Shown here: positions 7,326 through 32,000 of the stretch, piece by piece
Position numbering within the stretch: position 1 is the stretch's first letter
How the letters are laid out: each line of letters starts with the position of its first letter
Source: Candidatus Omnitrophota bacterium
GTDB taxonomy: Bacteria; Omnitrophota; Gorgyraeia; Zapsychrales; JANLHA01
DNA: 32,000 nt
Reading direction: 5' to 3'
Assembly (NCBI GenBank): GCA_963662715.1
Contig: OY759724.1
Location: forward strand, 720,001 to 752,000
Program-made: the position numbers and the translations under genes
Notes under the pieces: generated by a model
What the model was told of the DNA's origin: nothing
Seen by the model: only the letters and a program-made list of their open reading frames with translations
Database searches by the model: none

Positions 7326-7340
7326 TTTCAACCTCCTAAA

Positions 7341-7385: not shown

Positions 7386-7470
7386 ATTTCGGTAACCAGG
7401 CTGTCCTTATCCCAGGACCCTATAGCTTTGCGTCCCCACCTTGCGATGGGTTTGCCCTTTTCGTCTATGT
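7386..7470 (-). promoter_or_regulatory. c-di-GMP-I (GEMM-I) riboswitch aptamer, proximal copy
   Basis: Minus-strand RNA: GACGAAAAGGGCAAACCCAUCGCAAGGUGGGGACGCAAAGCUAUAGGGUCCUGGGAUAAGGACAGCCUGGUUACCGAAAU. It aligns by eye to the Vibrio cholerae Vc2 aptamer (ACAGGGCAAACCAUUCGAAAGAGUGGGACGCAAAGCCUCCGG...GGGGUUACCGAUGG). GGGCAAACC is identical, then comes a hairpin closed by a GNRA tetraloop (CCCAUC-GCAA-GGUGGG), then GGGACGCAAAGC is identical. A second bulged hairpin follows (GGGUCC...GGAC-AG-CC), then GGUUACCGA. Confidence 0.8.
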
Positions 7471-7527: not shown

Positions 7528-7615
7528 CGTTGATTCGGGAACTGGCTATCCTTGATAAAGGACCCTGTAGCTTTGCGTCCCCACCTTGCGATGGGTTTGC
7601 CTTTTTCGTCAATCT
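7528..7615 (-). promoter_or_regulatory. c-di-GMP-I (GEMM-I) riboswitch aptamer, distal copy
   Basis: Minus-strand RNA: GAUUGACGAAAAAGGCAAACCCAUCGCAAGGUGGGGACGCAAAGCUACAGGGUCCUUUAUCAAGGAUAGCCAGUUCCCGAAUCAACG. It has the same conserved core as the proximal copy. The two copies share a 51-nt near-identical stretch, plus strand 7415..7465 versus 7560..7610, with 2 mismatches. The second hairpin shows a compatible change relative to the proximal copy: GGAU-AG-CC versus GGAC-AG-CC, a G-U pair versus a G-C pair. Confidence 0.75.
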
Positions 7616-13008: not shown

Positions 13009-14802
13009 TCAATCGTCAATGTTTGCTTCCGGGACATCCCTGCCGGACGACAGCATCAGTCGTTGCAGCTTCTGCAGATCTTCTTGAGCTTTAAGAATCT
13101 TTTCGGCCTGCTGATAAACCCTTTGGGCTTCTTGATCCTGACGAAGGATTTTATGAACAAAAATCAAATAACCGAAATCGGAAACTCGCGGAGACTGGAT
13201 CAAGTCTAAATTCTTTTGGAAATATATCAACGCCTGCCGAAACGCTCCCTTCCGGATCATGACTTCCCCTAATCCTTTATACGGCAGATGAAAATACGGG
13301 TACCGCCGGACAGCTCTTCTAAAATAATATTCCGCAACTTGCGGCTCATCCAGCCGGCAATATCCGAGGAAACAAAAAACTCTCGGATCATCCGCGCCCA
13401 AGGCAAGGCTTTTTTCTAACGCCCACCGGGATAACTGACAATTTCCCCGTTTAAACGCCAATATCCCCATTGTCTGGTAACCCGACTTGTCTTCCGGATA
13501 GGCCTTAACCAAGGCCCGTGCCAATACGTCATCGTTTTTCCAGACCGTATTTAAATAATTCAGTTTTAATAAACAGACCGCCACCATTCCTGCTTTCAAA
13601 ATCAACCCCAGCCGCGGGTGACCGGAGGAAAAAGGACTCCTCTTTATCCCGCGGTCTATCAGCAGGCCCAAAGCGGCAAAAAAACCTATCGACGGGACAT
13701 AGAGATATCGGTGAGCCACCGGGTTCACAAGAGGAATACTGTGAGAAACAGGGAAAAAAGCGGCCAGGAACCAAAACAAGAAAAAAGGCAAAGGGCCTTT
13801 TGTCTTTCTCATCTTGATGAGCATCGCCATGATAAGCATATAAAAAGCGCCACCCAGAATCACGCTGACAAACGACAGGGAACTTAAAGGAAGTTTATAA
13901 TCGCCGGGGACCACTTTAACTTTCCAGGGGAAAAGCATCTCCGTGCATTGGAAATAAAAAATCTGTAAAACCTCCTGCAGGTGGATCAGGGGCCGGGCAT
14001 GTATTTTCATCTGACTCAAAGTTGTGTTCGGGAAAACACAAAGATAAACATACAAGTAAAAACAGGAAATGAGGCCGATTCCCATCAGAAAGGGCCGGGA
14101 CCTTCGCAATCTATCCGCCGTCGTCCGCATATAATAAAGATATCCTCCGACAAGCAGCGGGAAGACGAGCGCGGATTCTTTTGTAAATAACGCCAAGAAG
14201 TACATCGCTAAAGAAACACACAAGAGAGGGACGCTCTGCCGGGGCAGATCCCCTCGCCCCCCACAATTACGGCTGGAAAGAACCGCCATTGCCCGTTCAG
14301 CCCGGATAAAACAGAGGAAAGCGGCAAGCAAAAAAAAGCAGGACAGGCTGTCGGCACGATACCCGACCGTGGAAACAACCTCTGCTTTTGTCGGATGAAC
14401 GGCAAACAAGCTGGTCCCGAACAAGGCCGCACTTTGGCTGTGCGACAGAAGCATAATGACAAAATAAACTGAAATGACATTCAGAATATGCAGAAACAGA
14501 TTATGGGCGTGATATCCGAAAGGCGCCAGCGAACACAGCCAGCGCTCAAAAAAAAAGGTCAGGGACAGCACCGGGCGATAAGCGACCGAACCGGAACTAA
14601 AAATAATGGTATTCCCGAACAGAACGTCTTCCCCGCGGGTTAAATACTTGTCGTCGAATAAATGGCGCAGGTGGCCCGGCTGGGCGTAAAAACGGTTATG
14701 AACGATAAAAGAGACTTCGTCACCGACAAATCCGTTAGAGAGGCTATTATGAAAGGCAAGAAATGTTAAAAGAATAAGGAATAAAATTGCTTTTGGCGCC
14801 AT
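13009..14802 (-). CDS. Polytopic membrane protein with C-terminal TPR repeats (TMTC/PMT-like, GT-C-type putative glycosyltransferase)
   Basis: 597-aa ORF. The N-terminal segment NGFVGDEVSFIVHN resembles the F-x-x-DD-x-x-I-x-x-N motif of TMTC/DUF1736-type proteins. About 10 hydrophobic helices follow. The C-terminal 170 aa or so carry TPR-like repeats (AYPEDKSGYQTMGILAFKRGNCQLSRWALEKSLAL..., YFRRAVRRYPYFHLPYKGLGEVMIRKGAFRQALIYFQKNLDL). Confidence 0.55.
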   Translation of the reverse strand: MAPKAILFLILLTFLAFHNSLSNGFVGDEVSFIVHNRFYAQPGHLRHLFDDKYLTRGEDVLFGNTIIFSSGSVAYRPVLSLTFFFERWLCSLAPFGYHAHNLFLHILNVISVYFVIMLLSHSQSAALFGTSLFAVHPTKAEVVSTVGYRADSLSCFFLLAAFLCFIRAERAMAVLSSRNCGGRGDLPRQSVPLLCVSLAMYFLALFTKESALVFPLLVGGYLYYMRTTADRLRRSRPFLMGIGLISCFYLYVYLCVFPNTTLSQMKIHARPLIHLQEVLQIFYFQCTEMLFPWKVKVVPGDYKLPLSSLSFVSVILGGAFYMLIMAMLIKMRKTKGPLPFFLFWFLAAFFPVSHSIPLVNPVAHRYLYVPSIGFFAALGLLIDRGIKRSPFSSGHPRLGLILKAGMVAVCLLKLNYLNTVWKNDDVLARALVKAYPEDKSGYQTMGILAFKRGNCQLSRWALEKSLALGADDPRVFCFLGYCRLDEPQVAEYYFRRAVRRYPYFHLPYKGLGEVMIRKGAFRQALIYFQKNLDLIQSPRVSDFGYLIFVHKILRQDQEAQRVYQQAEKILKAQEDLQKLQRLMLSSGRDVPEANIDD

Positions 14803-16558: not shown

Positions 16559-16683
16559 GAGTAAGATTCTTTTCTGCCCTCTTAATAGTGTGCAATTTTT
16601 TCAGGCATGAAAAATTGGATTATCCGATCCAACTATGCTATTTTATTAAGGAATTATTATCTTCATTTATTATATTTCTTATT

Positions 16684-18438
16684 ATGAAAAAATCGATCAT
16701 TTTATTATTCATCTTCCTGAGCCAGTATGCTTTTGCTTACGCAGACGATATTCAGCTGGAAACCGGAGAGTCCCTTTCCTGCCTTTTCCTGGATAGGACC
16801 GGTTCGGAAATCTTTCTGGATTGTCAAAATGACGGGTTACAATCATACGCCATTACGAAAGTCCGGAGTGTTAACGGAGAGAAGGTCCTCCCCGTTGATG
16901 ACAAACTCTTGTCCTGGATAAAATCTCAGCAAAGCTCCTTCACTCAGATGCCTCTGAGTTTTGACATCCTTGATCAGGAAAGAATGGATTCGTATAAACG
17001 CATGGGAGAGCCTGACTCTATCACAGGGATCATTGAACGCCTCATTGTGGAAGAAGGAATGTCCGTGTATGATACGGCCGTCCGGCAGATTGCCTTGACG
17101 ATGATCGGCGGTCTTCAGAACCTGAAGTCCGCCTACCTTCCCATTCAGACATATTGGGACGGACACCTAAGACAACTGATCAACATCCGGGCCGGTTACC
17201 CCTCGCAGCCGTTTATTTATGATCCTTTTCAACCGGAAAGAGTCAGTTCTGATTTGTCCGAGAAAGGCAAACGGGGGTTTCTCTTCCGCATCATTAACGC
17301 CCACGGCCTTTATGACTCCCAAGATCCTCTGGATGGCAAAGAACGGTTCGTCGGGTTTCCTAACTGGCCAACGATCCATTGGGAAGACTGGAAACCTATT
17401 GCCGGAGAAAACGCCTGGGTTGTCATTGCCGCAATGCATCTGCACAAAAAAAGATATCTGAAAAAACCGGATCATAACCCGGACCGCTCTCTGGATACGG
17501 TTGAAATGCGGTTGGCAAAGGAAATCGCCAGGGCAGCCCAACTGCTACAAGCTCCTAACGGAGGAATCCGCATGGCGCCTATCGGCACGTACACGCCTAT
17601 TGTCACGATTGATAAAAATTCCAGCCTTGAAGAAATTTCCCAAACGCTGGATGCTCTTGCACGCTACGAACCTTCCGTGAAAGAAAAAAATCCCGTCAAT
17701 CAACTCTTTGAGAACGGAATGGTTGTCAATGACCAATACATGCCGGAAGAGCTCACGTGGTATTACAATGAAATATCAACGGAAAATAATCTGTCCTGGT
17801 ACACGGCTTTCCGCATGTTGTACGAAGTCACCGGAGAGGAGCGGTATAAAAAATCCATGGAAGATATCGAAAAATACTTCCGGTCGGCCTGGAACGCCTC
17901 CGAATATTATTTCTATCAAGGGATGCATTTCCGTTTTGGGACATGGTTCCCCAACAATGAACACTTTGCCACTGATGTGCAGAACTGGGCGGTAGCAGCT
18001 CTGGGGCCCCAGAAAATCGACGCCTGGTTTGGGGAAGGAACGGCATTTAAAATATGGCAAAAGACGAAGAATATATCCGGGAACTTCAATCAGCAGCATA
18101 AAATCCGCGGGGTAGGCTTCACCACGGAGCATGACCGCATTTCCATTGAATGGACCGTAGGCGCAATATTTGCGACGAGGAGTTTAGCGGAATATTATAA
18201 AAAAAGTCACCCGGACTGGGCTGAGGAAGCCGCCCAAGACGCTCAAAACATGCGCAGCAGCATGGAATCCTTCCGCATTGAAATTTCTGATCAAGAAGCC
18301 GCTTACGCCTATTCTTCCAGGCGGGGGTGGATTCCCTTTGGCTGGTTTTCTCATGACCCCAACATCATCAGCTTAGTCTCGACGTGTTGGATCATACTCG
18401 CCGATGCGGACTACAATCCGTTCTTCCTGCCGGAATAA
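16684..18438 (+). CDS. Secreted protein of unknown function
   Basis: Track ORF 16588..18438. I prefer the internal ATG at 16684 because it yields a canonical signal peptide, MKKSIILLFIFLSQYAFA/YADD. No family motif was recognised. W/Y-rich segments (GENAWVVIAAMHL, NLSWYTAFRMLYEVTG) are vaguely reminiscent of alpha/alpha-toroid glycan-active enzymes, but I cannot support that call. This is the only plus-strand gene. Confidence 0.75.
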   Translation: MKKSIILLFIFLSQYAFAYADDIQLETGESLSCLFLDRTGSEIFLDCQNDGLQSYAITKVRSVNGEKVLPVDDKLLSWIKSQQSSFTQMPLSFDILDQERMDSYKRMGEPDSITGIIERLIVEEGMSVYDTAVRQIALTMIGGLQNLKSAYLPIQTYWDGHLRQLINIRAGYPSQPFIYDPFQPERVSSDLSEKGKRGFLFRIINAHGLYDSQDPLDGKERFVGFPNWPTIHWEDWKPIAGENAWVVIAAMHLHKKRYLKKPDHNPDRSLDTVEMRLAKEIARAAQLLQAPNGGIRMAPIGTYTPIVTIDKNSSLEEISQTLDALARYEPSVKEKNPVNQLFENGMVVNDQYMPEELTWYYNEISTENNLSWYTAFRMLYEVTGEERYKKSMEDIEKYFRSAWNASEYYFYQGMHFRFGTWFPNNEHFATDVQNWAVAALGPQKIDAWFGEGTAFKIWQKTKNISGNFNQQHKIRGVGFTTEHDRISIEWTVGAIFATRSLAEYYKKSHPDWAEEAAQDAQNMRSSMESFRIEISDQEAAYAYSSRRGWIPFGWFSHDPNIISLVSTCWIILADADYNPFFLPE

Positions 18439-18468: not shown

Positions 18469-21400
18469 TTAATCCTCTTTTTCATCCACCTTATCAATGA
18501 TACTTAACCGCGCTTCAGAGCTGTTCGCCCGGATCTCCGGCACATACATGGCATGGACCTGATTAGGCATCCCGTGAAAATCTCCCGGGATTTCGGCACG
18601 GAGCTCATAGGTGATCTTATGTTTTCCCTGCGGAAGTTCTGTAATAAAAAAGGCCGCTTTCTGGTCGCGGAATTCCTTATAAAGCCAGACCTGCCTGCCC
18701 TGGGCCTCCTCGTCTTCATCTAAAGTCACGGCATATCCGCTGCCGCTTTTTAACTCTGTCGCTTCAAAACCGGCGGGCTTGTAATCTTCCACAACCAGAT
18801 ATTCGTAATGATTTTTGGCTTCCAATTGGATCTCAACCCGCACCCGGTCCCCGCTCATTAACCGGTCACCTATCTCCAGGGGCTGCCATTCGTCTTTATA
18901 CCCCTTCAGCAATGTCTCTTTTTGCGACTGCCGGGAATACGTGCGTTTCACAAAGACCTCGTTTCCGGCAGGGGAAATATTTTCTTCCAGAGTGAAATAT
19001 TTCAAATACCCGGACAGATATAAAGCCCCTTCCCCTTTCATGGCGACTGTCACCTGATTAGAACCGTTTTTCAGATACTCTTGCGGAACGGTAATGTTAC
19101 GGTTATAAGTAAACAGGTTCGCCCGGCTGACATGCCCTTTCGTTAAGGATTGACCGTTGACAAACACTTCATAATCAAAATCCGGCGTTAGCTCCAACGT
19201 CGTTTTTAAATAATCCGCCAAACCCAAAATAGCAACAGCCGTATCCCGGGTATTTTTCCACCTTGCTCCCCGCCGGTTTAAGGCGAGCCATTTGACGGCT
19301 GACTCCAAATGAGGACTTTGCGGGTCAATGTTCGCCAGCGCTTTAATGACAAAGGCCGTCGCTTCAACCCCGCCTTCACTCCAGCGGTAATTTACGCCGG
19401 ATTCTCCCCAATGAACCGTTCCGTTTTCCGGATCTTCCTGCATCCCGTTCACCAAATTCCGGGCCAAAACCCGGGCATTATCCAAACGGCCCCGCTGGAA
19501 CTCAGATAAAGCAAACAAGGCCCGTGTATAGGGGTTAAGCTGATCCCGCATATCCCAAAGACGCTGGCTTTGTTTTTCTTCATACCGGCTGTTGGACCTC
19601 GTCCCGGCCAAAGCATGCAGCATCCATGCCAGCATATCCGGATTATCCTCTTCCTCAACGAGTTCTTTCTGCAGGAAATTCACGGCCCGGGCAATCACTC
19701 CGCCTTCAATTTTTATTCCGGCCTGCTGGGCCAACGACAGCCCCCAGGTCACATAAGCCGTCATAAAACGGTTGCTGTCATCTTCTTTCCACCAACCCCA
19801 GCCGCCGTCCTCATGTTGAAACTCATATAATCTTTTAACGGCTTTCTCGGTAACGGCATTGAGCTGCTGCAGAGAGGCGTGCTGGGACATATGAGGATAA
19901 GCCGGGTCTCCCCGCGGCTCCATGACATCGCTGATATAGGCCGAAACTTCATCCCGGGAAAAGCCTAGTTGATGTAAAGTTTTGGCGACGATAACCGAGG
20001 GCAGGAAACGGCTCATGGTCTGCTCCACGCAGCCGTAAGGATAATTCGCAAGATACGGCAAAGCATCCAGCATGGCCGCGGCCATAGACGGCGACATCAC
20101 GAGCTCTAAAGAGGTCGACTCTTTCATGCGCTCCGCAGGGACGTGCAGAACAAACTCGGCACGATCTTCTTTATCCCCGGCGGATTTCAGGCTCAAGCTC
20201 TTGGCAATAAACTTCTCGATCCCGTGAGGAATGACCGGATAGACTTTTTTCATGGCGTCAGCCTCATCAGCGGCCTGGGCCATGACGGTTATATCGGCCT
20301 GGCCGGCCAAAGGCGCCGCACAAATCCAGTCTACCCGCTGCTCTCCTTGGGACGGGACTGTCACCCAGGCCTCAGGAGCGTCCATCACCTGCAAACCCTT
20401 GGCATCAAGACTCACTTTGATCTTCTGTTCCTGATCAGTATAATTATGAACATTGGCTGAAATGGTGACTTTGTCCCGTTCGGTAAAAAAACGCGGAGCC
20501 TGCAAGCGGACAATCACGTCTTTGTTTGTCCTTACCTCATGAGTGATATTCCCTATTTTCGTTCCCCGTGTCATGGCACGCGCTGTCGTCTGCCAGGTCG
20601 TCAGCGAATCAGGAAAACGGGCTTTTATCTCCGCCCGGCCGTCTTCATTCGTCATCAACACCGGCTGCCAAAATACCGTTGAACGGAAATCAGCCCTCAC
20701 TTCAGGAGTCGCAAGACCGGCATCATCGCCCAGAACCGCCCCTATTTCGTCCATCTCCATCAAGGCTTCTTCCCTGGGGGCCGAAAGAGCCGGGCTGGCC
20801 AGACCTTTCATTTTGCCGACCACCGCTCTGCTGGATTTAACCTCCATGTCCGACATTTCTTTGCTGAGCTCACCGGCGACTCCTTCCCCGAACACCATCC
20901 CCCCGCTCGCGGCATCAAGCGTTTGAACCTGGACGCTGTAATCTAAACGGTGTTCGTTTTTCTTGTCCGCATCTTTTATCAAGCTCCTCCGGAAACGTTC
21001 ATCTTCCGTGATAATCTGTCCGTTCTCATCCCGGACGAGCAGCTGGTAACGTTTTTGGTTAAAACTCGTCTGGGTCTGCACGGACAGCTGTCTTTTTTCC
21101 CCGAAGAAAAATTCCCGGATATCCTTGGCATATTCACTCTGGATATAAAAAACGCTCTTGTCCACCATGCCTAAAGCCACTTCAGCCACAACAGGCTGCC
21201 CTTTATGATCCGTCACTTCTACTTCAAAGGCCCCTTCTTCGCGAGGGCCATAGGATTCCTTATCTGCTATAATCTTAACATTAAGGAATTTCTCCTCCGG
21301 AGGAACGACAATCGGCAGAGAATACATCTTTAACTGATAATGGTCCGCAGAAACAGCATTAAAAAACATATTGGGGATAAAATAATCCTGAACGGGGACC

Positions 21401-24324
21401 TCGATCAGCTTAACCGGCCCGGTCAAATGCAGCAGTTGATAATTATGAATTTCCTGCGTCTCTGTTGTCAACAGCACCCAGGTATCCGGCCGTTCAGAAA
21501 CAATCATCAGGCGGGCAACATCCCCTACGGCATAAGTGTCTTTTTCCGGAATGATCTGCAAACCTCCATAGCGATAGCCGATATCCTCGCTTCGCGCTCC
21601 GCAGACAAAGACCTGCGCCAGGGACTTCACTTCACTCCCGTCCTGATCATAGCCTACAAATTCAACGGTGTAATATCCGTCCTGTTCAGGCTGGAAATCA
21701 AAAAGCGCTTCACCCTGCTCGTCTGTTTTCACAAAACGCGTAACGATTTCATCCTGGCGATAATCCCCCGGCTGAACCACGCGCCCTTGCTCCTTCAGGG
21801 GGGTATGCCACCAATTCCGCAAAACGGCGACCCGGCCTTCCACCGAAACCGGGTCATTATTAGCGGTCAAGACTTTAATATTGACTTCGGCTTTATCTCC
21901 GGGACGGTACACATTATGCTTGGGTGTTAAGTAAGCAAAAAAAGAATTGCGCGTGACCTTTATATCAGAAGCCGCTGTGATTTCCCTGCGGCTCTGGTCA
22001 ACGACCCGGACTTCAATGTGATACTTCAGATCATGAGGGGAATTTTCAGGGGACTCAAAAGAAAAGAACGCCTTTCCCTGTTCATCCGTCTGTACGGCCT
22101 CCTTTTTTATCAAAGACCCGTGCCCCCCCCGATAATAGGACTGCTGAGTTTCGGCGTAATACCAGGGGTATTTACGGGGAGGAACATAGCTGTGATAGTA
22201 CGGGGCCGCGTAAATAAGATACTCAACTTCGGCTTTCGCGACCGGGCCGCCGAAATAATACTGGGCCTCAATCTCAACCTCAACCTTATCCCCCAGACGG
22301 TAAGCCGCGACCCCTTTTTTATCTTCTTGAGGCCTGGGTTTTACGGAAACGAGAAATTCCGGAAGTTTATATTCCTCAAGCCGGAACAATTTTGCCTGGG
22401 CTAAAAGATTACCTTTATCCGTCGTTAGAACTTGCAGCGAATATTCTCCCAGCGTGGCGTTCTCGTCTAAAACCAAGGTGTCGCAAAAAGAACCGTATTC
22501 ATTCAACCGGTAAAATTCTTCTTTCACCGTGTTTCCGCGGGCATCATAAATCTTCACTTTGATCGGCATGCCCTCCGGGGCCCGGAACGTCTCCTTCTCA
22601 TATTTCCGCAGCGTCCCTTTGAAAGAAATCTCTTCGCCAGGACGGTACGCCGGCCTGTCGCTAAACGCATACAGCCACCAGTCCCCCTGATTCTGCTGGC
22701 GGGCGTGGAAATACCCCTGGGCAAAAGCCTGCATGGTCCCGTCGGACACACAGGCAAAAAGGTTATGCTGATGACCGTAATTGCGCTGCTCAGATGTTTT
22801 CAGCACAGCTTCCAGGAGGCCTTGTTCATTGGTCTGCCCCTGCCCTTCTTCCCAGACCCATTGCCCCTGGGCCGTGTAGTAACGGTAATGATATTTCACG
22901 TTCACATTCTGCCGGGGCGCCCCGCTGCTGCTGTCAAAAGCATAGAAAAGAGCCGAATGCCCGGCCACCTTGGTGACAAGCCCCATGTCCGTCACCAGAA
23001 TCAAATCATACGCTGTCGCATGGCCTGCCGAGACAAATAATAAGTACGCCCCCGGAGCCAGAACCCCTTGGGAGAAATCAAACTCTTTCTGGTCATCCGG
23101 TTTTAACCACTCGGCAAGTCCTTTTGACTCGCTGTACCACAAATGTTTTCCTTCATTTTTTAATGTTCTCCTCCAGGAACGCTCTTTCGGGAGGTAGACA
23201 TACTGCCTGTTTTTGACAAGGCGCTGAATAATATCCGAATAGTTATCCATCCCCCGTTCACTGTCTGTTAAAGAACGCGTTGAATCTAACTGCATGTGCT
23301 GGGAAAGATCAATTTTATACAATGTAAACATCGCTTCTTGAACATTCCGCCACCCCAAATGAAACTGGACCTGTGAATCAGGCAAAAACGTATAACTGAC
23401 CCCCATATTAAGTTTGGGTTCTGTGATATCTTTTATGCGTTGTCTGGCATTATCGACCCATTGAGAATCTCCCCGCTGGAAATTCTTTAACAGCCCCTGA
23501 TAAGCTGCCAGCGCCCCGTTAAAATCATTCCCCCTCTCATAAAACTGGCCAAGCTGATAATACGCATCATCCGCCCACTCCGAATCAGAGAATTCTTCAA
23601 TGATGGTCTCAAAATTCGTCTGAACGATCTTTTTTTCTTTTTCACCGTAACCCCGGTTGAGAAAACTCATGGCCAAGGAATAATGCGCTTTAGCTTTATC
23701 TTCAGGCAAACGGGCGACTTTAAGTATCTCTTCGTAAAGGACATTTAATCCTTCATTACGTCCTTCCGGGAGAGACTCCCCGGCGCCGCTGATCCGGGTC
23801 GGCTTGATACCCGTATAATACCAACCCCAGTTCTGTGAAATAAAATCCCCTAAAGTAAAACTGATGTTAATAAAACGCGGGCGGGCTAATTTAATATCTG
23901 TCTGCCCGGCCCAAAACTCCCGGGCCGCGCTTAAATACTGTTTTATATTTTCGGCATGTGACCACCGGTCTTTCTTGAGATACAATTCCGCCAGGGACTC
24001 ACTGGCTTCAGCCCACCAGCGGTCCTGGTTTTTGGATTCAGCCAATTTCTTCAATATTTCCTCTGCCTGCCGCTCTTGGCCACCCCCTCCGGACCGCCAT
24101 AAAGAGTCGGCCAGCTTAAAATGAACTTCTCTTTCCAGGTCTTCAGAAACCCCGCCGGATTTAAGCACCGCCTGGTATTGGGAGGCAGCCATCTGGTAAG
24201 ATTTCTCAAGCCATAACTGGTCAGCTTGTCCTTTCACAGACTTATCATAGGCTTGCGATGGGGAAAAACAGTAGCCAAAAAACACCAAAAACGTCGTGAT
24301 AATGAAAATGCCCCATTTTCTCAT
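18469..24324 (-). CDS. Bacterial alpha-2-macroglobulin family protein with a thioester motif and an N-terminal TPR-like extension
   Basis: 1951-aa ORF with signal peptide MRKWGIFIITTFLVFFGYCFSPSQA. NYPYGCVEQTMSRFLP (CVEQ codons at 20020..20031) corresponds to the CxEQ thioester site, as in E. coli YfhM YPYGCLEQ. The long beta-rich MG-domain-like region and the C-terminal receptor-binding-like domain fit the family. The first 300 aa or so are helical and TPR-like. Confidence 0.88.
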   Translation of the reverse strand: MRKWGIFIITTFLVFFGYCFSPSQAYDKSVKGQADQLWLEKSYQMAASQYQAVLKSGGVSEDLEREVHFKLADSLWRSGGGGQERQAEEILKKLAESKNQDRWWAEASESLAELYLKKDRWSHAENIKQYLSAAREFWAGQTDIKLARPRFINISFTLGDFISQNWGWYYTGIKPTRISGAGESLPEGRNEGLNVLYEEILKVARLPEDKAKAHYSLAMSFLNRGYGEKEKKIVQTNFETIIEEFSDSEWADDAYYQLGQFYERGNDFNGALAAYQGLLKNFQRGDSQWVDNARQRIKDITEPKLNMGVSYTFLPDSQVQFHLGWRNVQEAMFTLYKIDLSQHMQLDSTRSLTDSERGMDNYSDIIQRLVKNRQYVYLPKERSWRRTLKNEGKHLWYSESKGLAEWLKPDDQKEFDFSQGVLAPGAYLLFVSAGHATAYDLILVTDMGLVTKVAGHSALFYAFDSSSGAPRQNVNVKYHYRYYTAQGQWVWEEGQGQTNEQGLLEAVLKTSEQRNYGHQHNLFACVSDGTMQAFAQGYFHARQQNQGDWWLYAFSDRPAYRPGEEISFKGTLRKYEKETFRAPEGMPIKVKIYDARGNTVKEEFYRLNEYGSFCDTLVLDENATLGEYSLQVLTTDKGNLLAQAKLFRLEEYKLPEFLVSVKPRPQEDKKGVAAYRLGDKVEVEIEAQYYFGGPVAKAEVEYLIYAAPYYHSYVPPRKYPWYYAETQQSYYRGGHGSLIKKEAVQTDEQGKAFFSFESPENSPHDLKYHIEVRVVDQSRREITAASDIKVTRNSFFAYLTPKHNVYRPGDKAEVNIKVLTANNDPVSVEGRVAVLRNWWHTPLKEQGRVVQPGDYRQDEIVTRFVKTDEQGEALFDFQPEQDGYYTVEFVGYDQDGSEVKSLAQVFVCGARSEDIGYRYGGLQIIPEKDTYAVGDVARLMIVSERPDTWVLLTTETQEIHNYQLLHLTGPVKLIEVPVQDYFIPNMFFNAVSADHYQLKMYSLPIVVPPEEKFLNVKIIADKESYGPREEGAFEVEVTDHKGQPVVAEVALGMVDKSVFYIQSEYAKDIREFFFGEKRQLSVQTQTSFNQKRYQLLVRDENGQIITEDERFRRSLIKDADKKNEHRLDYSVQVQTLDAASGGMVFGEGVAGELSKEMSDMEVKSSRAVVGKMKGLASPALSAPREEALMEMDEIGAVLGDDAGLATPEVRADFRSTVFWQPVLMTNEDGRAEIKARFPDSLTTWQTTARAMTRGTKIGNITHEVRTNKDVIVRLQAPRFFTERDKVTISANVHNYTDQEQKIKVSLDAKGLQVMDAPEAWVTVPSQGEQRVDWICAAPLAGQADITVMAQAADEADAMKKVYPVIPHGIEKFIAKSLSLKSAGDKEDRAEFVLHVPAERMKESTSLELVMSPSMAAAMLDALPYLANYPYGCVEQTMSRFLPSVIVAKTLHQLGFSRDEVSAYISDVMEPRGDPAYPHMSQHASLQQLNAVTEKAVKRLYEFQHEDGGWGWWKEDDSNRFMTAYVTWGLSLAQQAGIKIEGGVIARAVNFLQKELVEEEDNPDMLAWMLHALAGTRSNSRYEEKQSQRLWDMRDQLNPYTRALFALSEFQRGRLDNARVLARNLVNGMQEDPENGTVHWGESGVNYRWSEGGVEATAFVIKALANIDPQSPHLESAVKWLALNRRGARWKNTRDTAVAILGLADYLKTTLELTPDFDYEVFVNGQSLTKGHVSRANLFTYNRNITVPQEYLKNGSNQVTVAMKGEGALYLSGYLKYFTLEENISPAGNEVFVKRTYSRQSQKETLLKGYKDEWQPLEIGDRLMSGDRVRVEIQLEAKNHYEYLVVEDYKPAGFEATELKSGSGYAVTLDEDEEAQGRQVWLYKEFRDQKAAFFITELPQGKHKITYELRAEIPGDFHGMPNQVHAMYVPEIRANSSEARLSIIDKVDEKED

Positions 24325-24589: not shown

Positions 24590-25333
24590 TTAATCTTGGA
24601 CGCTGGTTCGATGATAAGTATCCATTGTCATGAAAAGCTGCCCAGCCTCTCCTTCTTCACGCACCAATCGATATGTTCCCGACACTTTTCCCGCTGTCGG
24701 GCAACAGTTGGCGTCTTCTTCGTTCCAAACAAAAAATTCAAAAAACAAGCCGTCTGCAAGGAACCAGGTCTTCGTCCCCTGCCGGATCTCTTCTCCGGGT
24801 TTTAAATAAGGGACGTAGGCTTTGGCCGCGGGGACAAAATGAACAGGTCTTAATTTCAAGTTATCGTGCCAAAAGACTTCGTACACATGCTCTGTTGTCA
24901 GGGCGGCTGTTCCTTGCGCCGTTTCGGTTATATGAATGATCTGAACGGGCGATTTTTCCCCTTTGATTGAGAAAAAAGAAATCTCTGCTTTAAGATCAGT
25001 AAAAGGCGTGGTTTTGAACTCATTAAGAAGGGATATTTGACCGTTTTGAAGAGAAAGAATTTTAACAATTTTATCAGAAGCGGTATGTTCAACCAAAACA
25101 GTCACTTTGTGATTCTGTAAACTTTCAGCTGTGCATAAGTGTTCGATTTCCGATTCCCGGAGGACGTGCTCCGCTGTTTCATAGATAACAAATGACTTGT
25201 CAGCATATTCATGACTCGGTTCTTGATCGGCAAAGCCATGACAACAGAAAAAAAACGGTCCCATGATTAGAATAAAAAGAATTCCCGCCTGATAGCCGCG
25301 TTGATCATCTCTTAAATGAAAAATCTGTGACAT
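24590..25333 (-). CDS. Hypothetical membrane-anchored or secreted protein
   Basis: 247-aa ORF with an N-terminal hydrophobic segment (AGILFILIMGPFFFCCHGFA). No recognisable motif. Confidence 0.6.
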   Translation of the reverse strand: MSQIFHLRDDQRGYQAGILFILIMGPFFFCCHGFADQEPSHEYADKSFVIYETAEHVLRESEIEHLCTAESLQNHKVTVLVEHTASDKIVKILSLQNGQISLLNEFKTTPFTDLKAEISFFSIKGEKSPVQIIHITETAQGTAALTTEHVYEVFWHDNLKLRPVHFVPAAKAYVPYLKPGEEIRQGTKTWFLADGLFFEFFVWNEEDANCCPTAGKVSGTYRLVREEGEAGQLFMTMDTYHRTSVQD

Positions 25334-25740: not shown

Positions 25741-28700
25741 TTAATTTAAACGGCTCAGGTTATCCTGAACATTAGGAAGGAACTTCTCCTGAACATCTGC
25801 CTGAGGGAATAACGGACTTAAGGATGCTGCCGTGGAAGGATTCTCCGGGGATTCCGACATACCTAAAAATAACGGAATATTTATGGGAGAAATTTGAATA
25901 ATAACCGGCTGAAAACCTTCAATATTCATACTTTTCACCGGCTGCTGCAGTAAAGGCAACGGCACACCCTGCCCATCCCGTTTGATCTGCAAATCAAGGG
26001 CAGCGGGATTGAAATCAATACCACCAATGTCCTCTATCGCTGCGTTTTCCTCCAGACTTTGCATAATCGGGGAACTGCGATGTTCCCCATCGCTTCCTTC
26101 ATCCAGAGGTTGCTGCTTGTCTTCGGGATAACCGGCGGCTAACTGAGTTTTATGCTGATCTTCGCTCTCAGCGAGTCTTGTCTCTCCTTCCCGCCTTTGC
26201 AGGTCCCCCCGCCAAAACTCTTTCAGGCGGTCCCAGCCATCCTTTTCCGCCTTTTCTATAGCCTCCAGAAGCGGCAAATATAATGTGCGGGAAGCTCTTG
26301 TTCTTTGCCCTTCACTTCGTAATTTGTCCTTTATATAATTTTTGGCAAAATCTTTATGCTGATCGGATGCCAGCATCGCAAGAATAGCTTCTTTTTCAAG
26401 CTTATTGGCCTGAGGCCAATGATGAATCAGGGCGATAATATCTGCAATTCCTCCGTTGAAATATGCCTGGGAAAGATAGTACTGCGGTGAATCGGGATTC
26501 ATAACGATGATCGTTAAAGCGTTGTTGGCCATGATCCTCACCCAATAATCTCTCACAGTGCCGAAACTCCCGCCAAGATAGTAAGACGGATCGTTATGGG
26601 CCGCAATAATCAAACTGGGAATCGTTTCCCGGTGATCAGGGCCCAACTCAATAAAAAACTGGGCTGCCTTAATGCGCAGTTCAGGGGTATCACCTTGCAG
26701 CAAAACCTCGGAGGCCACCTGAGCGGCTTTTACGGTTTCCCCGATACCATAAAGCGCCTCGGCGGTTTTAACCCCTAATTCAGGATGATCTGCATACCAG
26801 TCATACAAGAAAGAGGCCATGGATTTCAGTCCCGGGCCCGCTTCCGCAATAATTTCATAAGCCCTCTTCTGAACTTCATCTGACCGATGAGTGACGGCTT
26901 TCCTCAGGCCGGCCTCAATACTGTTTGCCCCGGCCACAACATCAAGGAACTTTTCATCCGAAGGAGCCAAGGCCCGGAACATCCCGGCAACGTCACTTTC
27001 TTCATAATAACCGAAATCAATCAAGGCTAAAACGAGGCTCCTGCAATTGGCCCCTTTTTTAAAGTTCCGGAACCGGTTCAAGAGGACCGGCCCCGCTTCG
27101 GTAAACCTGGTGACCCGTAAAGCATCATGCAGTTTCTTACGGAGGAAATCGTCATTGTATATCCACTTGCTATAAATATTAAAAACATTTGGGCCGACGG
27201 CAGCGCCCTGGGAAGCCATATCGGCATAAGCAATGATAATTTCCTCTCCAAAACTACGCCGCATAAAAGAATCCTGCAGGAATTCGTCCAAAGTCGCTGT
27301 AATCTCATCATTAGCCAAACCGATTCTGCCCAATGCCAAAATCATATCACTGTAGTCGCTGTCATTAATATAGCGCAATCCCGGACGAGGCGCTTTCCAG
27401 CTGTCGGCATTATCTTTTAATTTCTCCTTTAACCTCGCGATCAGAAACGGAACAGCTTTTTGAGCATATTCTTGTTCTCCCATATAGGAAAATGTCAGGG
27501 CCGCCCCGAGGGCGATCTCGGGATCAGAGTGATCCAGGGCCTCCTCTAAAACAGGAGAGACATCGGCAGGAGCATAAGACATGAAAACAGTAAAAATTTT
27601 GTCAAAGGTGTCCTCATTCGCCCGATAGAGAAAATCTTTGGATATATATTGCCTGAAATGGTCCTTTTTAGCTTCTTCGCTATAATGGCTCAGCAACTGT
27701 GTCATGCTCTGGCTATTCATCCAGCCCTCTCCGCTAATCCGGATACGCAGCTGCATATTTCCCATAAGCTGCTGAGCAACAGACAAATCCTCTGGCAAGG
27801 CCCTGTCCTGCCCCTCAGCCATAAAGGCCCGTCGCTTCTGGCTGTAATAAATAGCGATTTCGGCAGGCCACTGCGTCTCTGACAACCGCTCGTCAGCCTC
27901 AACGTAATAAAGATTATCGGCTTGCTGAGGATTATAAAGGGCCTCCAATATTCCATAAGCTTCATTACGGACCGCGAAGTTTTCGTCCAATAACGTTATC
28001 AGCATCATGTCCGTCAGTTCTTTTTTGTGGTCACTCCTTAAAGAAACCGGGAAATTCAGCCGGACACGGATAGATTCCAGGGTGATTCTGCGTATATCAG
28101 GATCAGGATGTCTTAAGTTACGGTAATCAAAATATGTGTCTTTCTCCGAAGCTTCTTCTGTGCCGGAGTCTTTTGCTTTTGCTTCAACAGTTCTGCTCTG
28201 TATACCGGGTTCTAATGTAATATCAAAGTTTTTCTTCAAATAATCCGCCACTCTTTGATCATAATGCACCCGCAGTTTTCTTAACGCCTCACTTTTCATG
28301 CCGGTCACGTCGCCGGAAAAAATATGATGCCACAGGGGAATCGCGGCAAAGGGGTCAATGGTGGCCGAAGCGGAAATAATACTTTTTTTAATTTTAAAAG
28401 ATTTTACCCTGCCGTAGATTTCTTTTAACAACGGCAAGGATTGGCTCGCACCGCTCCCGATCCGTTCCAGAGTGTTGATAGGATCGACAATTTGTCTGAC
28501 TTCAAAATCCGCCCGCGTAGGGAAAAAAATTCTTTTGGAACGGGTTTCCTTGTCCAGATATGCCATCAGGGACGGGACAGATGCTTCACCGATAGCGACT
28601 AAAGCGTCGCTTGGGTCATAAACAAGAACCAGATTCGGAGTCGCATAACTGTCATATAAATCAACTAATTGGGGGACCGCCATCTCGGCCTCAGGCCCGA

Positions 28701-30402
28701 TATCCTCAATAACATGCAGAAGGGGCGTCACAACATTCCGCCAGGTGAAGAGCTGGGAAATCTCTAAATATTCGAACATCTCCTCAAGAATATCCTGCCT
28801 GACAGGACGAATCCGTCCCAATAAATAAATGGCTTTCTCCCTTTCGAAGCGCTCGTTGAACCAAGGGCTTAACAATTTGCGTAACTGGGACACAGCCGGT
28901 TCTCCGATCTCTTCCAATCGGCGCAGCAAAACCAAATCCTGCAGCCAGTTTTCTCCTTTAATCCCCTGAATCAGGTCATTGATCTCCTTTTCCTGGTCAG
29001 TATATTTCATCCTCACGATTTGAGTCGTATGAAAAAGCTGTGACTGGAAATCCTGGACAGCGTTCTGGGGCAGGGCGTCAGGCCCGGAGGAAAACACCCC
29101 TAACGCAGATAAAAGGATGGTCAAAGCTCTTTTCAGCCTTCCGGGTTTTGAGAATACATTACGGCCGGCATTTTCCACCAGTGCTACCCTCACCCGGCGG
29201 TTCTTTCCTTTCTCCGACTCAGGCTGCGTGATCGCCGAACTCACGCGTCCCGGCAGCCGGCCCGGCTGGCCGCGCAAGACCTCCAGCTTGTCCACCGTCA
29301 CAACCCCCACGCCCAACCCCCCGGAAAAATATTTCCGCGGTATCACCTGCTGCGTCGCTTCATCGTAATCTTCCCGTATATAGTTGTAGACGCCTTGCTT
29401 GAACGCGTCCAGATACTGCTGGTATATCTTCTCTTTTATCTCCCTGTCCTCAACATCGATCCCCTTCACCCTGTTCCGGTCCATGTACACCTGGCCCAAT
29501 AAACTGTCCCGCAAATTCTTCTTGTACCAGGTCGCCAGGATCATTGAGTTGTAGATCTGCCGCAAATTCGCGAACGTCTGCCCTTCATTCACTTCCTTCT
29601 CTATCGCCGGAAGGATAATATCCTTGACGATCTTTGAGGACAGTTCATTCAGCTCTTTGGCCTGCCCCTTTGACTGTTTGTGCAACCCCAGGTCTTTGCT
29701 CTGCAGATTATGCTCCAAGGCCAGATAATCCTCTTCCAGCATCACCTTCAAGTGCCGTTCCACCACAAACGCGCTGCCCGCGTGCTCATAGACAACCGCC
29801 TTATCCGGCACGATCCATACCTTATTAAATGTGTTTACCGGGATATTCGTTGTGCCGTACAGCTCATAGGCCTTTTTATAGACTTTACTCCAGAACGCCT
29901 GGCCCAGTTCTTCTTCCGGATACATCAACGAAGCGGTGAGCTGTTTCAGCAGGTAATCCTGGGAGAGCATGTCCTTGCCCATTTCCGTAACGCCCAACCC
30001 TTCCGGGATGATCCGGTTGTTTTCATATGGCGATAAGTTGACCCACAGTTCGTCTTCAGGGACCGTCAAAGCCGCCAGGAAATACTTGATCAGCCTCTGT
30101 GACTCGGCTTCAAAAGAGGCTCCTTTTAAATCCCTGTCTCCCGTATCAATAATGAAATCAAACTGCAGAGGGTTGTCCGGATGGATGGTGAGCCCCCGCA
30201 GGATCGCCGGCGCGAATGTCTCGCTGATCGAAAGGATCGTCCCGGGCTGCGGCAGAGAGAAGACAGCGGCACGCTCTTCTTTGGCCCACCCCGGTGTCGG
30301 CATAAGGACGGACGACAATAAAAAGACCGCCGCCATACCCGCCGATAAAAAGCGGCGCGGGATTGTTTTCAATTTATGATTTGTCGGCTTATGCCTATTC
30401 AT
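25741..30402 (-). CDS. Large secreted multidomain protein: conserved N-terminal domain of unknown function, HEAT-like repeats and a shared C-terminal GGIDFNP module
   Basis: 1553-aa ORF with signal peptide ...AAVFLLSSVLMPTPGWA/KEE. HEAT/PBS-lyase-like repeats are present (DPDIRRITLESI, DENFAVRNEAYGILEAL, HSDPEIALGAALTF, HRSDEVQKRAYEIIAEAG, TPELRIKAAQFFIELG). The C-terminal 95 aa or so are nearly identical to the C-terminus of the upstream gene. Confidence 0.8.
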   Translation of the reverse strand: MNRHKPTNHKLKTIPRRFLSAGMAAVFLLSSVLMPTPGWAKEERAAVFSLPQPGTILSISETFAPAILRGLTIHPDNPLQFDFIIDTGDRDLKGASFEAESQRLIKYFLAALTVPEDELWVNLSPYENNRIIPEGLGVTEMGKDMLSQDYLLKQLTASLMYPEEELGQAFWSKVYKKAYELYGTTNIPVNTFNKVWIVPDKAVVYEHAGSAFVVERHLKVMLEEDYLALEHNLQSKDLGLHKQSKGQAKELNELSSKIVKDIILPAIEKEVNEGQTFANLRQIYNSMILATWYKKNLRDSLLGQVYMDRNRVKGIDVEDREIKEKIYQQYLDAFKQGVYNYIREDYDEATQQVIPRKYFSGGLGVGVVTVDKLEVLRGQPGRLPGRVSSAITQPESEKGKNRRVRVALVENAGRNVFSKPGRLKRALTILLSALGVFSSGPDALPQNAVQDFQSQLFHTTQIVRMKYTDQEKEINDLIQGIKGENWLQDLVLLRRLEEIGEPAVSQLRKLLSPWFNERFEREKAIYLLGRIRPVRQDILEEMFEYLEISQLFTWRNVVTPLLHVIEDIGPEAEMAVPQLVDLYDSYATPNLVLVYDPSDALVAIGEASVPSLMAYLDKETRSKRIFFPTRADFEVRQIVDPINTLERIGSGASQSLPLLKEIYGRVKSFKIKKSIISASATIDPFAAIPLWHHIFSGDVTGMKSEALRKLRVHYDQRVADYLKKNFDITLEPGIQSRTVEAKAKDSGTEEASEKDTYFDYRNLRHPDPDIRRITLESIRVRLNFPVSLRSDHKKELTDMMLITLLDENFAVRNEAYGILEALYNPQQADNLYYVEADERLSETQWPAEIAIYYSQKRRAFMAEGQDRALPEDLSVAQQLMGNMQLRIRISGEGWMNSQSMTQLLSHYSEEAKKDHFRQYISKDFLYRANEDTFDKIFTVFMSYAPADVSPVLEEALDHSDPEIALGAALTFSYMGEQEYAQKAVPFLIARLKEKLKDNADSWKAPRPGLRYINDSDYSDMILALGRIGLANDEITATLDEFLQDSFMRRSFGEEIIIAYADMASQGAAVGPNVFNIYSKWIYNDDFLRKKLHDALRVTRFTEAGPVLLNRFRNFKKGANCRSLVLALIDFGYYEESDVAGMFRALAPSDEKFLDVVAGANSIEAGLRKAVTHRSDEVQKRAYEIIAEAGPGLKSMASFLYDWYADHPELGVKTAEALYGIGETVKAAQVASEVLLQGDTPELRIKAAQFFIELGPDHRETIPSLIIAAHNDPSYYLGGSFGTVRDYWVRIMANNALTIIVMNPDSPQYYLSQAYFNGGIADIIALIHHWPQANKLEKEAILAMLASDQHKDFAKNYIKDKLRSEGQRTRASRTLYLPLLEAIEKAEKDGWDRLKEFWRGDLQRREGETRLAESEDQHKTQLAAGYPEDKQQPLDEGSDGEHRSSPIMQSLEENAAIEDIGGIDFNPAALDLQIKRDGQGVPLPLLQQPVKSMNIEGFQPVIIQISPINIPLFLGMSESPENPSTAASLSPLFPQADVQEKFLPNVQDNLSRLN

Positions 30403-30439
30403 TTCAATCTGATTCCATGTCTTCCAAAACTAAAATAAC

Positions 30440-32000
30440 TTAATTCAGCCAGCTGATATCTTTTTCACGGCCGGCATAAAATTTTTCCCGGCTGTCAGAC
30501 GGTAAGGCTGACCGCCTTGTCGCCGAAGGAGGACTTTCTTCCGGCCCCTCCTCAGTTAAACCTAACAATAAAGGAATATTCACCGGCGCGATGTTAATGA
30601 TAACCGGCAAAAACCCGTCAATTCTCATATCACCCACCGGCTGCTGCGGCAAAGGCAGCGGCACGCCCTGGCCGTCCCGCTTGATCTGCAGATCAAGTGC
30701 GGCCGGGTTAAAGTCAATACCGCCTAACGGCGAAGAGGCCGGTTCAGGTTCTTTCCCCAGTTCATAGCGTTTAATCTCCTGCCGATAGTCCCTGGCCCTG
30801 TCCTGATAAAACCAGCGCTCGGACAAGACCACGGAATCCACGTCCACGTCTCCCCAATGTTCATAGCGAATATCTTCAATGGCTTTTAAAAGGATCTCCG
30901 GTTCATCTCCGGTTAAATCTTCAACAATCCAGCCAAAAGTCGCATGAGCGACAAACGGATCAAACTTTGGGCCCTTTTGCGTCATATCAAAAAATTGATC
31001 CTGCAGGCCCTTCACTTCATCCCGGGCATTGTCCGTCATTAACATCGGGATAAAAATGGCTTTGCCCTGAAACATGCCTATCCCCTGAGCCATGAATTTA
31101 AAGGCACCGACCCGCCCCGGGATAAGCTGATCAAGCACAGCCACGGTTTCCTCTGTCACTTGCTCTTTCTGCCGGGGATCAGTCGTAAAATATGTCACTG
31201 AAGCATACGGCAGCGAGGGCACATCCCAGGCGATCTTATCAATGATCGATTGGGGAAGACGCGCCTTAAGCGCTTCCTGCGCTTTGGCCATGATCGCCTC
31301 CGGCATATTAAAATGCAAGAGATGTTTTAATTCCTCCTCCATCATCCTTTGGTCTTTCTGCACGGGCGTTCGTAAGGCCTCCTGCCACTTCTGTTCAAAG
31401 ATATCCCAGCTGGCCTGATATTCCGGAAGGATGGCGACCGGAGAACTTGCAGTATCAAAACTGTCAGTAATATTAATGACCTCGGCCTTATCTTTTTGAT
31501 GTATTGCGCTTGATACATTTTCATTTAACCGTTTTGTCCATTCGGCATATTCTTCTTCATACCCTTGTCTTGTCGCATTAGGTATTCTGTGCTCACCTAT
31601 AACTTCAGTATCTCTTCCCCACGTTTGGTTTTCCGGGCCGGCACCTTCATTAGGATCCCATAAGATTGGGAATACAAGTTCTTCTGGCTCTCTGGCAATA
31701 CGATCCAGAAGGGCTTCCATGGCCCTTTTGTATAATTTTACTGCGGAAGCACCTCTATATCCCCGACCCCATAAAATATCAGAAATAATTTCGAGTCTCA
31801 TATCAGGATATCTCCGGTGATGGGTGTCGATAAACTCCACGATTTCATCTTCTGTGACACCCCCTGTTCTTAAAATTTCTTCAAGAGCGACAAAAGTTTC
31901 CTTGTTCCTCAGAAAATCTTTGATCTCAAATAGAGAACGAAGGGTTTCTCTGTCTTCAACCTTCCCCAATGCTTGCATAGTCCATATTCTCGAACTCAAT
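30440..32000 (-). CDS. Protein of unknown function with the shared C-terminal GGIDFNP module (5' end probably outside the window)
   Basis: The track ORF starts at TTG 31999, but the frame is open to the right window edge, so the true start is likely beyond 32000. The C-terminus reads GGIDFNPAALDLQIKRDGQGVPLPLPQQPVGDMRIDGFLPVIINIAPVNIPLLLGL plus a 38-aa tail ending in WLN. It lies 37 nt upstream of the 1553-aa gene on the same strand. Confidence 0.75.
   Translation of the reverse strand, partial: LSSRIWTMQALGKVEDRETLRSLFEIKDFLRNKETFVALEEILRTGGVTEDEIVEFIDTHHRRYPDMRLEIISDILWGRGYRGASAVKLYKRAMEALLDRIAREPEELVFPILWDPNEGAGPENQTWGRDTEVIGEHRIPNATRQGYEEEYAEWTKRLNENVSSAIHQKDKAEVINITDSFDTASSPVAILPEYQASWDIFEQKWQEALRTPVQKDQRMMEEELKHLLHFNMPEAIMAKAQEALKARLPQSIIDKIAWDVPSLPYASVTYFTTDPRQKEQVTEETVAVLDQLIPGRVGAFKFMAQGIGMFQGKAIFIPMLMTDNARDEVKGLQDQFFDMTQKGPKFDPFVAHATFGWIVEDLTGDEPEILLKAIEDIRYEHWGDVDVDSVVLSERWFYQDRARDYRQEIKRYELGKEPEPASSPLGGIDFNPAALDLQIKRDGQGVPLPLPQQPVGDMRIDGFLPVIINIAPVNIPLLLGLTEEGPEESPPSATRRSALPSDSREKFYAGREKDISWLN

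Follow-up and report, generated by a model that had tools for sequence, protein, structure and literature searches.

The DNA analyzed here is a 32,000-nucleotide stretch of a Candidatus Omnitrophota genome (contig OY759724.1, positions 720,001 to 752,000), referred to below as the window. Near its end it carries two tandem genes on the minus strand whose products finish in the same short element, termed here the C-module; proteins that end in it are called carriers. The first carrier gene (25741..30402) is complete, and the translation of its 1553-amino acid (aa) product is identical to the database protein P0007. This protein begins with about 40 aa that resemble a signal peptide by heuristic criteria (30283..30402), consisting of a basic n-region, the hydrophobic segment LSAGMAAVFLLSSVLMP, and then PGWA/KEE. 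A conserved N-terminal domain that defines the family (the N-domain, residues ~41-416; 29155..30282), leads into a variable passenger of ~1040 aa that contains HEAT repeats (26026..29154; Pfam HEAT_2, E 7.8e-11). The chain closes with the 56-aa core of the C-module, GGIDFNPAALDLQIKRDGQGVPLPLLQQPVKSMNIEGFQPVIIQISPINIPLFLGM (25858..26025), and a tail of 38 aa (25744..25857), which is a variable linker ending in ...NLSRLN immediately before the stop codon (25741..25743). A spacer of 37 bp (30403..30439) separates this gene from the second carrier gene, the 3' part of which (519 codons, 30440..31999, also on the minus strand) lies in the window while the rest continues beyond its edge. Here the second copy of the core, GGIDFNPAALDLQIKRDGQGVPLPLPQQPVGDMRIDGFLPVIINIAPVNIPLLLGL (30557..30724), is again followed by a 38-aa tail (30443..30556), with the ending ...KDISWLN and the stop codon at 30440..30442.

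The last ~96 aa of the two proteins align at 59-60% identity in tblastn searches of the window (E 8.5e-32 and 4.1e-31), which revealed no third copy of the module there, and the cores are identical at 45 of 56 residues (80%). At the DNA level, the cores are 77% identical, and 19 of the 45 identical residues use different codons in the two copies. Given these synonymous codon differences at 77% nucleotide identity, the DNA likeness is the trace of purifying selection on the protein rather than of a recent DNA duplication. A first-pass annotation made from the letters of the window had described such a common C-terminal module, tails of 38 aa on both copies (with the ends ...SRLN and ...SWLN) and a similarity extending to the DNA, and in all of this it was correct. 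However, it had also called the two proteins otherwise unrelated, which is not the case. Within the window, the remaining parts of the two carriers indeed lack similarity (blastp E>0.8), an apparent unrelatedness that arises because the upstream gene is truncated at the window edge. The full-length product of the upstream gene is represented in the database by P0008 (2770 aa), which ends in exactly the 518 residues that this gene encodes in the window. P0008 has a signal-peptide-like N-terminus, the N-domain and a HEAT-containing middle, as in the 1553-aa protein. Furthermore, over its residues 8-414 it is 94% identical to P0007 (residues 10-416). HEAT_2 is the only Pfam match when both full proteins are scanned with Pfam and NCBIfam, and no similarity is found between their passengers. 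The two window genes are thus paralogues that have both ends in common and a different middle.

The module is present far beyond this pair. A profile made from eight module sequences and searched against 1.84 billion representatives yielded 3,499 cluster representatives with E<=1e-3, of which 1,822 reach E<=1e-10. For the 150 top matches, which are proteins of 79-4969 aa, the main match sits no more than about 45 residues from the C-terminus. Further carriers were what the first-pass annotation had proposed to look for with a profile, noting that a module restricted to these two paralogues would mean a simple local duplication. The adjacency of the two genes would suit that simpler reading, but it is ruled out by the 3,499 representatives, which come from many metagenome-assembled genomes (MAGs). 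In a separate genome scan, which used one genome per species and a single peptide pattern, 249 stretches were confirmed and 77 loci were kept. These loci are mostly labelled Candidatus Omnitrophota or Omnitrophica, in agreement with a tentative suggestion in the annotation that C-termini of this kind occur in Omnitrophota-like lineages. Two of the 77 belong to Ca. Zapsychrus exili, of the same phylum, and 21 further loci to third-party annotation (TPA) MAGs labelled 'uncultured Planctomycetales', a label that could not be verified. The 77 loci contain 102 open reading frames (ORFs) with the module, whose distance to the stop codon is always 69 aa or less, and in 21 loci there are two to four carrier ORFs, nearly all of them in tandem on one strand. 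The MAG JAGOSC01 alone contains nine carriers or more. Four of these, of 2641, 1727, ~3470 and 2174 aa, follow one another head-to-tail on one strand over ~30 kb of contig JAGOSC010000005.1 (~22.9-53.0 kb; loci L016/L019), and at least five more lie on other contigs. Wherever a protein was inspected, the module began its end of the chain no more than ~70 aa before the stop codon. The family is very large and paralogous, and it appears to be limited to Omnitrophota.

The core of the C-module conforms to the consensus GGI[DN]x-N...LQIKRDGxGVPLP...IxGFxPxIIxIxP, in which 10 positions (GG, I, D, G, LP and Q among them) are invariant among 89 sequences and 15 more are at least 90% conserved. There are two types of module, which are found together in the same loci. 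Type a reads ...QQPxxxMxIxGFxPVIINIxPxxNLPLLLGL and continues into a linker of 20-45 aa, while type b reads ...QQDMxQLxxIQGFxPEIIEIKPAVNLPIxSELQQKLQ... and has a short tail. The free C-terminus [IVL]S-x-L-N is present in 46 of 185 type-a modules, those of both window proteins included, and most often takes the form KAREPEEISALN; conservation at this position suggests that the end of the chain is recognized. The median proline content of the core is 7 per 56 aa. Kyte-Doolittle hydropathy, taken over 19-mers, peaks at 1.33 in the window copy, with a family median of 1.56, and the net charge of the tail is negative in 62% of sequences and +2 or above in 6%.

Pfam, NCBIfam and the PDB do not recognize this element. 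Neither window module has a Pfam match at E<=10 or an NCBIfam match at E<=1; against PDB sequences, the module profile gives nothing below E 0.19 and a profile of the whole family nothing significant. AlphaFold2 (AF2), applied to the window module alone with the 89-sequence alignment, returned a mean local confidence (pLDDT) of 66, a global score (pTM) of 0.25 and no secondary structure. In a full-length AF2 model of another carrier, P0183, the module has a pLDDT of 55-73, compared with 85-95 over residues ~10-290 of the N-domain. These models point to a C-module without an autonomous fold.

The results also bear on the likeness that the first-pass annotation had drawn to the C-terminal domains (CTDs) of the type IX secretion system (T9SS) and to PEP-CTERM, although it did not recognize the module as a named signal. 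The C-terminal position, on large exported proteins, is indeed as in these systems. However, there is no beta-sandwich, nor a transmembrane (TM) helix followed by a basic cluster. That the module is a named C-terminal signal after all, whether a T9SS CTD, PEP-CTERM or another tripartite signal, a dockerin or a type I secretion system (T1SS) signal, is extremely unlikely, as is the notion of a mere local duplication. The missing Pfam, NCBIfam and PDB sequence matches, the AF2 models (without a beta-sandwich and without helices), the hydropathy maximum of 1.33, the seven core prolines and the mostly acidic tail all argue against it, and carriers have signal peptides, unlike T1SS substrates. The annotator's reserve in naming the module was therefore well placed, and the possibility, also raised there, that it is an enzymatic domain did not hold.

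Both borders of the passenger carry a Gly-Gly pair, which in the complete window protein lies near residues 360 and 1460. In the family, the N-domain consensus ends in ...PRxYFSGG, and the C-module starts with an invariant GG (G13 and G14 in the 89 sequences). These pairs could mark a processing or hinge site. If processing occurs, the C-module might be a cleavable pro-piece that is removed, or from which the passenger is released, after export by an enzyme such as a C39-type double-glycine peptidase. Besides the glycine pairs at both borders, this idea draws on the C39 peptidase domains reported in Omnitrophota giant proteins (10.1101/2023.11.21.568195). However, it is derived from a motif alone; the known double-glycine leaders are N-terminal and have a different upstream consensus, and no peptidase gene recurs near the carriers of the 77 loci. 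A C-terminal pro-piece is consequently considered quite improbable.

A further feature of the C-module is its pairing with the N-domain. Of the 67 carriers that have their 5' end within the locus, 64 proved to contain the N-domain in a search with a profile obtained by jackhmmer from P0007 residues 41-440. In two of the other three, an N-domain ORF precedes the carrier ORF and overlaps it, suggesting a frameshift. Similarly, an N-domain ORF stands immediately before each of the metagenomic carriers P0040 and P0064, and the gene for a third, P0074, is cut off by the end of its contig. The apparent N-domain-less carriers thus look like split or truncated genes, and the C-module is not a free tag but an element paired, nearly without exception, with one ~380-aa N-domain. 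This modifies the earlier suggestion of a sorting tag: the fixed C-terminal position on very different passengers is real, but with the N-domain in 64 of 67 carriers the tag is not an independent one. Since the C-module is restricted to N-domain carriers, it is unlike T9SS CTDs or PEP-CTERM, which occur on unrelated architectures.

The N-domain is as anonymous as the module. It has no Pfam family, no PDB sequence relative and no significant Foldseek match in the PDB; for the full-length AF2 model, the best Foldseek-PDB match (E 0.049, TM 0.11) is uninformative. Relatives in the top 120 of more than 1,464 database matches are 50-69% identical to the query. Of those with a name, nearly all go by 'hypothetical protein', and a few take theirs from the fused passenger. 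The public names of P0158, P0182 and P0178 are misleading in this way, as 'RecJ exonuclease' and 'diguanylate cyclase/phosphodiesterase' (GGDEF/EAL) reflect passengers. One N-domain protein is labelled Heimdallarchaeota, probably through a binning error. Both window genes can be placed in this family bracketed by an N-domain and a C-module, for which no public name was found; their membership by N-domain is direct for 25741..30402 and comes via the full-length P0008 for the upstream gene. Literature searches with motif strings (GGIDF, GGIDL and others) gave unrelated matches only, and the N/C bracket is not described in Seymour et al. 2023 or in the searched text of 10.1101/2023.11.21.568195 and 10.64898/2026.06.07.730766. 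N-domain and C-module are two sequence families without a public model, and both merit Pfam/NCBIfam entries.

Between the two ends, the content varies widely. The common order is a signal-peptide-like N-terminus, the ~380-aa N-domain, a hypervariable passenger, the ~56-aa Pro/Gly-rich core and a mostly acidic linker. Passengers are 264-2968 aa long in the carriers measured (longer ones exist), are mutually ~8-17% identical and have unrelated Pfam content. Pfam scans place HEAT-type repeats in 9 of 69 passengers. Others are enzymes of glycolysis and gluconeogenesis (PGK, GAPDH, enolase, PGI, class-I aldolase, TIM, PGM and PEPCK) or of the glyoxylate and acyl-CoA pathways (isocitrate lyase, malate synthase, acyl-CoA dehydrogenase and methylmalonyl-CoA mutase), and there are also UDP-glucose pyrophosphorylase, GH77, NAPRTase, response-regulator receivers and further domains. 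Several enzymes can be fused in one chain. A carrier of 2991 aa (locus L054, 1292-10264) consists of the N-domain, GAPDH, GAPDH, PGK, enolase, an aldolase-II-like region and the C-module, and one of 3030 aa (locus L053, 1196-10285) of the N-domain, PEPCK, malate synthase, aldolase-I, isocitrate lyase and the C-module. PROSITE active-site signatures are intact in GAPDH (ASCTTN), TIM (AYEPVWAIGTG), ICL (KKCGHM), PGK, PGI and PGM. The nearest database relatives of the GAPDH-PGK-enolase block in L054 are 35-41% identical and come mostly from other organisms, and no stand-alone glycolytic enzymes were found in the locus flanks by PROSITE patterns. Sequence comparison shows a phylum-wide, two-ended family in which one passenger has repeatedly replaced another, with the ends staying fixed and paired. 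Multi-enzyme long proteins have been reported in Omnitrophota (10.1101/2023.11.21.568195; 10.64898/2026.06.07.730766).

The two ends are also correlated in kind. The nearest N-domain relative of a carrier has the same C-module type in 113 of 127 cases; for type b this is true of 26 out of 30, against a base rate of 24%. Such tracking is among the observations that favor head-to-tail self-assembly, a model in which the C-module of one carrier would dock into another carrier's N-domain, for instance through beta-strand addition, giving rise to fibres or multi-enzyme scaffolds. The almost constant co-occurrence of N-domain and C-module, the predicted lack of an autonomous fold in the latter and the absence of a conserved external partner gene near carriers fit the same model, and consecutive pathway enzymes as passengers are what would be expected of a metabolon scaffold. 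However, vertical inheritance of whole genes explains the correlation of N and C types equally well, and the confidence of the module is not raised beside its own N-domain in the full-length AF2 model, where it stays at a pLDDT of 55-73. Head-to-tail docking is regarded as possible, if doubtful. A different process, concerted evolution of the ends within genomes, was rejected, because carriers in tandem do not resemble one another more than carriers from different genomes do: the values for tandem versus different-genome carriers are 0.61 versus 0.58 for the N-domain and 0.47 versus 0.63 for the C-core. Type a often adjoins type b. Because tandem neighbours are in general no more alike than others, the 94% N-domain identity in the window is the result of a local, recent event.

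In 62 of 64 complete carriers, a basic N-terminus precedes a hydrophobic 12-mer, and an AxA-like site follows in 59. By this heuristic, the carrier N-terminus looks like a Sec-type signal peptide, and enzyme-bearing carriers have signal-peptide-like N-termini that are the same as those of other carriers. It is nonetheless conceivable that the N-terminus is an uncleaved anchor, so that the enzymes would remain on the cytoplasmic side of the membrane as a tethered metabolon and the C-module would be an assembly or regulatory peptide. In accord with this, the passengers are intact enzymes of cytoplasmic type that have kept their active-site signatures, and a stand-alone PFK, which implies cytoplasmic glycolysis, is encoded in the window. 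The preprint 10.64898/2026.06.07.730766 debates the same question for multi-enzyme proteins of at least 10 kaa (thousand amino acids). However, basic residues ahead of the hydrophobic segment predict an N-in topology with the remaining chain translocated, and the AxA-like cleavage site in 59 of 64 carriers is at odds with an uncleaved anchor; a cytoplasmic metabolon therefore seems unlikely.

Taken together, these results have led to a working model, to which we assign a probability of roughly 0.4, in which the C-module and the N-domain form a sorting or docking cassette that acts after Sec export. In this model, the signal peptide would carry the protein across the inner membrane. The C-module would be an extended, proline-rich recognition segment that is bound in trans by a conserved partner in the cell envelope, and this binding, jointly with the N-domain, would sort, retain or assemble the passenger at the envelope or the cell surface. 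The two ends would thus constitute a fixed address cassette, and new passengers would be swapped in between them by recombination. Consistent with the model are the size of the family, the C-terminal position of the module, its pairing with the N-domain, the export signal, the diversity of passengers, selection at the protein level, the lack of an autonomous fold and the conserved free C-terminus.

There are also several points that speak against a sorting or docking cassette. The all-versus-all clustering of 1,223 flanking ORFs from the 77 loci produced no candidate partner, and no secretion, sortase or anchoring gene recurs beside the carriers. The co-occurrence with a secretion or sortase-like system for which the first-pass annotation had proposed a search was thus not observed, and a role of the module in secretion or anchoring is what we infer. 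The commonest neighbour cluster, of generic ABC ATPase/Mla-like genes, is present at 12 of the 77 loci, and housekeeping genes are present at fewer. Furthermore, the signal peptide call is heuristic, and many passengers are classical cytoplasmic enzymes that use ATP or NAD (GAPDH, PGK, enolase, PEPCK), which is awkward for an extracytoplasmic site. A sorting signal of general use should also turn up on proteins with diverse N-termini, which the C-module does not. Finally, low AF2 confidence is no proof of disorder.

Omnitrophota are ultra-small, uncultivated and probably host-dependent, and they encode many large proteins that are for the most part unexplained. The two ends provide a searchable signature for thousands of modular proteins that are now 'hypothetical' or named after their passenger. 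Should the ends prove to be a cassette for addressing or assembly, they would mark the cargo of an envelope or host-interaction system. They also pose a puzzle, in that enzymes of central metabolism lie behind signal peptides and are fused in pathway order. A bolder version of the sorting model would hold that Omnitrophota export intact glycolytic, gluconeogenic and glyoxylate enzymes behind a Sec signal, with the N-domain and C-module as a two-part address for their delivery to, or assembly in, an extracytoplasmic compartment, the cell surface, or a host or prey cell. This version is speculative and the odds are well against it; if true, however, such enzyme export would either parallel organelle targeting in a bacterium or constitute a new class of metabolic effector.

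Several other genes of the window have features of their own. Downstream of both carriers, on the same strand, is a gene for a bacterial alpha-2-macroglobulin of 1951 aa (18469..24324, minus strand) with MG2, bait region, A2M, TED and bMG10 domains and an N-terminal TPR; a 247-aa ORF without a Pfam match (24590..25333) lies between it and the carriers. Two tandem c-di-GMP-I-GGC riboswitch aptamers (7387..7465 and 7533..7610, minus strand; 65.5 and 65.3 bits, with a gathering score of 59) are located directly upstream of the gene for a 708-aa NHL-repeat protein with a hydrophobic N-terminus (5205..7331). The tandem arrangement suggests that this protein may be under steep c-di-GMP control. An ORF of at least 1566 aa on the minus strand (1..4698) continues past the window start and consists of ~33 tandem units of 132 bp with 87% matches, each encoding an acidic repeat of 44 aa with six cysteines (QCYSCMDKPEECxDLGLLSQEECAVCVEDPKKECVEDQKTKEG). 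Two more ORFs, at 13009..14802 (minus strand, 597 aa) and 16588..18438 (plus strand, 616 aa), have no Pfam match.

Among known systems, the family behaves most like T9SS cargo, dockerin-tagged enzymes and the two-armed MARTX layout. T9SS cargo, which has an N-terminal Sec signal, is likewise exported, often very large and diverse in its passengers, with a conserved extreme C-terminus and many paralogues per genome. However, the T9SS CTD is a folded beta-sandwich of 70-100 aa (PF18962/TIGR04183), whereas the C-module has no predicted fold (AF2 shows no strands, and an autonomous beta-sandwich is not predicted) and no HMM match; in particular, neither window module matches Por_Secre_tail (PF18962) or TIGR04183. 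T9SS cargo has no common N-terminal domain, whereas the N-domain is obligatory in carriers, and T9SS belongs to Bacteroidota while carriers belong to Omnitrophota. None of the T9SS core components (PorK/L/M/N, SprA, PorU/V) is encoded in the window or recurs in the 77 loci. The tripartite signals (PEP-CTERM, LPXTG, GlyGly-CTERM) have a TM helix and basic cluster that the C-module lacks, and NCBIfam gave no match to them. Nor does an autotransporter (type V secretion) match in Pfam; its beta-barrel translocator spans at least 250 aa, and the conserved C-terminal element of carriers is 56 aa plus a variable tail.

Other systems resemble carriers in how they combine constant and variable parts. 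MARTX toxins likewise have two conserved ends around interchangeable internal domains, so that relatives differ mainly in the middle. Their ends are glycine-rich repeat arms, they leave the cell by T1SS without a Sec signal and they deliver toxin effectors, whereas carriers have no repeats at their ends, a Sec-like signal and HEAT-scaffold or metabolic-enzyme passengers. More generally, T1SS substrates have no N-terminal signal peptide and, in the RTX case, carry nonapeptide repeats ahead of their C-terminal signal, while 62 of 64 carriers begin with a signal-peptide-like sequence, and no RTX or hemolysin-type Pfam match was obtained in the 69 passengers or the window proteins. Cellulosomal dockerin enzymes consist, like carriers, of a signal peptide, a variable enzyme and a short conserved C-terminal element, and the dockerin binds its partner in trans to build multi-enzyme assemblies. 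However, dockerin (PF00404) is a duplicated Ca-binding loop-helix, to which the C-module has no match and for which no helices are predicted; for carriers no cohesin-like partner was identified, and they have the extra obligatory N-domain.

By analogy only, carriers also resemble proteins that reach eukaryotic glycosomes and glyoxysomes through peroxisomal targeting signal 1 (PTS1), a C-terminal address on GAPDH, PGK, aldolase, PGI, PEPCK, isocitrate lyase, malate synthase and acyl-CoA dehydrogenase-type enzymes; one subclass of carriers even shares with it a conserved free C-terminus. Pex5 recognizes PTS1, a tripeptide, on cytosolic proteins that are already folded, whereas the element in carriers is 56 aa or more and occurs together with a Sec-like signal and an N-domain, in a bacterium for which no organelle is known. 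The Archaeovorins and giant proteins of Omnitrophota are also comparable. They have in common with carriers the phylum, HEAT repeats, GNAT, methyltransferase, GGDEF, sugar-metabolism enzymes and frequent signal peptides. They differ in size: the giant proteins of 10.1101/2023.11.21.568195 and 10.64898/2026.06.07.730766 have at least 10,000 aa, compared with 600-5000 aa for the carriers studied here. Archaeovorin-type giants (West-Roberts et al. 2023 preprint) are characterized as ORFs of tens of thousands of residues with HEAT repeats, TM segments and enzyme domains; the window proteins also contain HEAT repeats but have 1553 and 2770 aa. Archaeovorins and carriers raise the same question, namely why metabolic enzymes should be part of exported or membrane-associated polypeptides.

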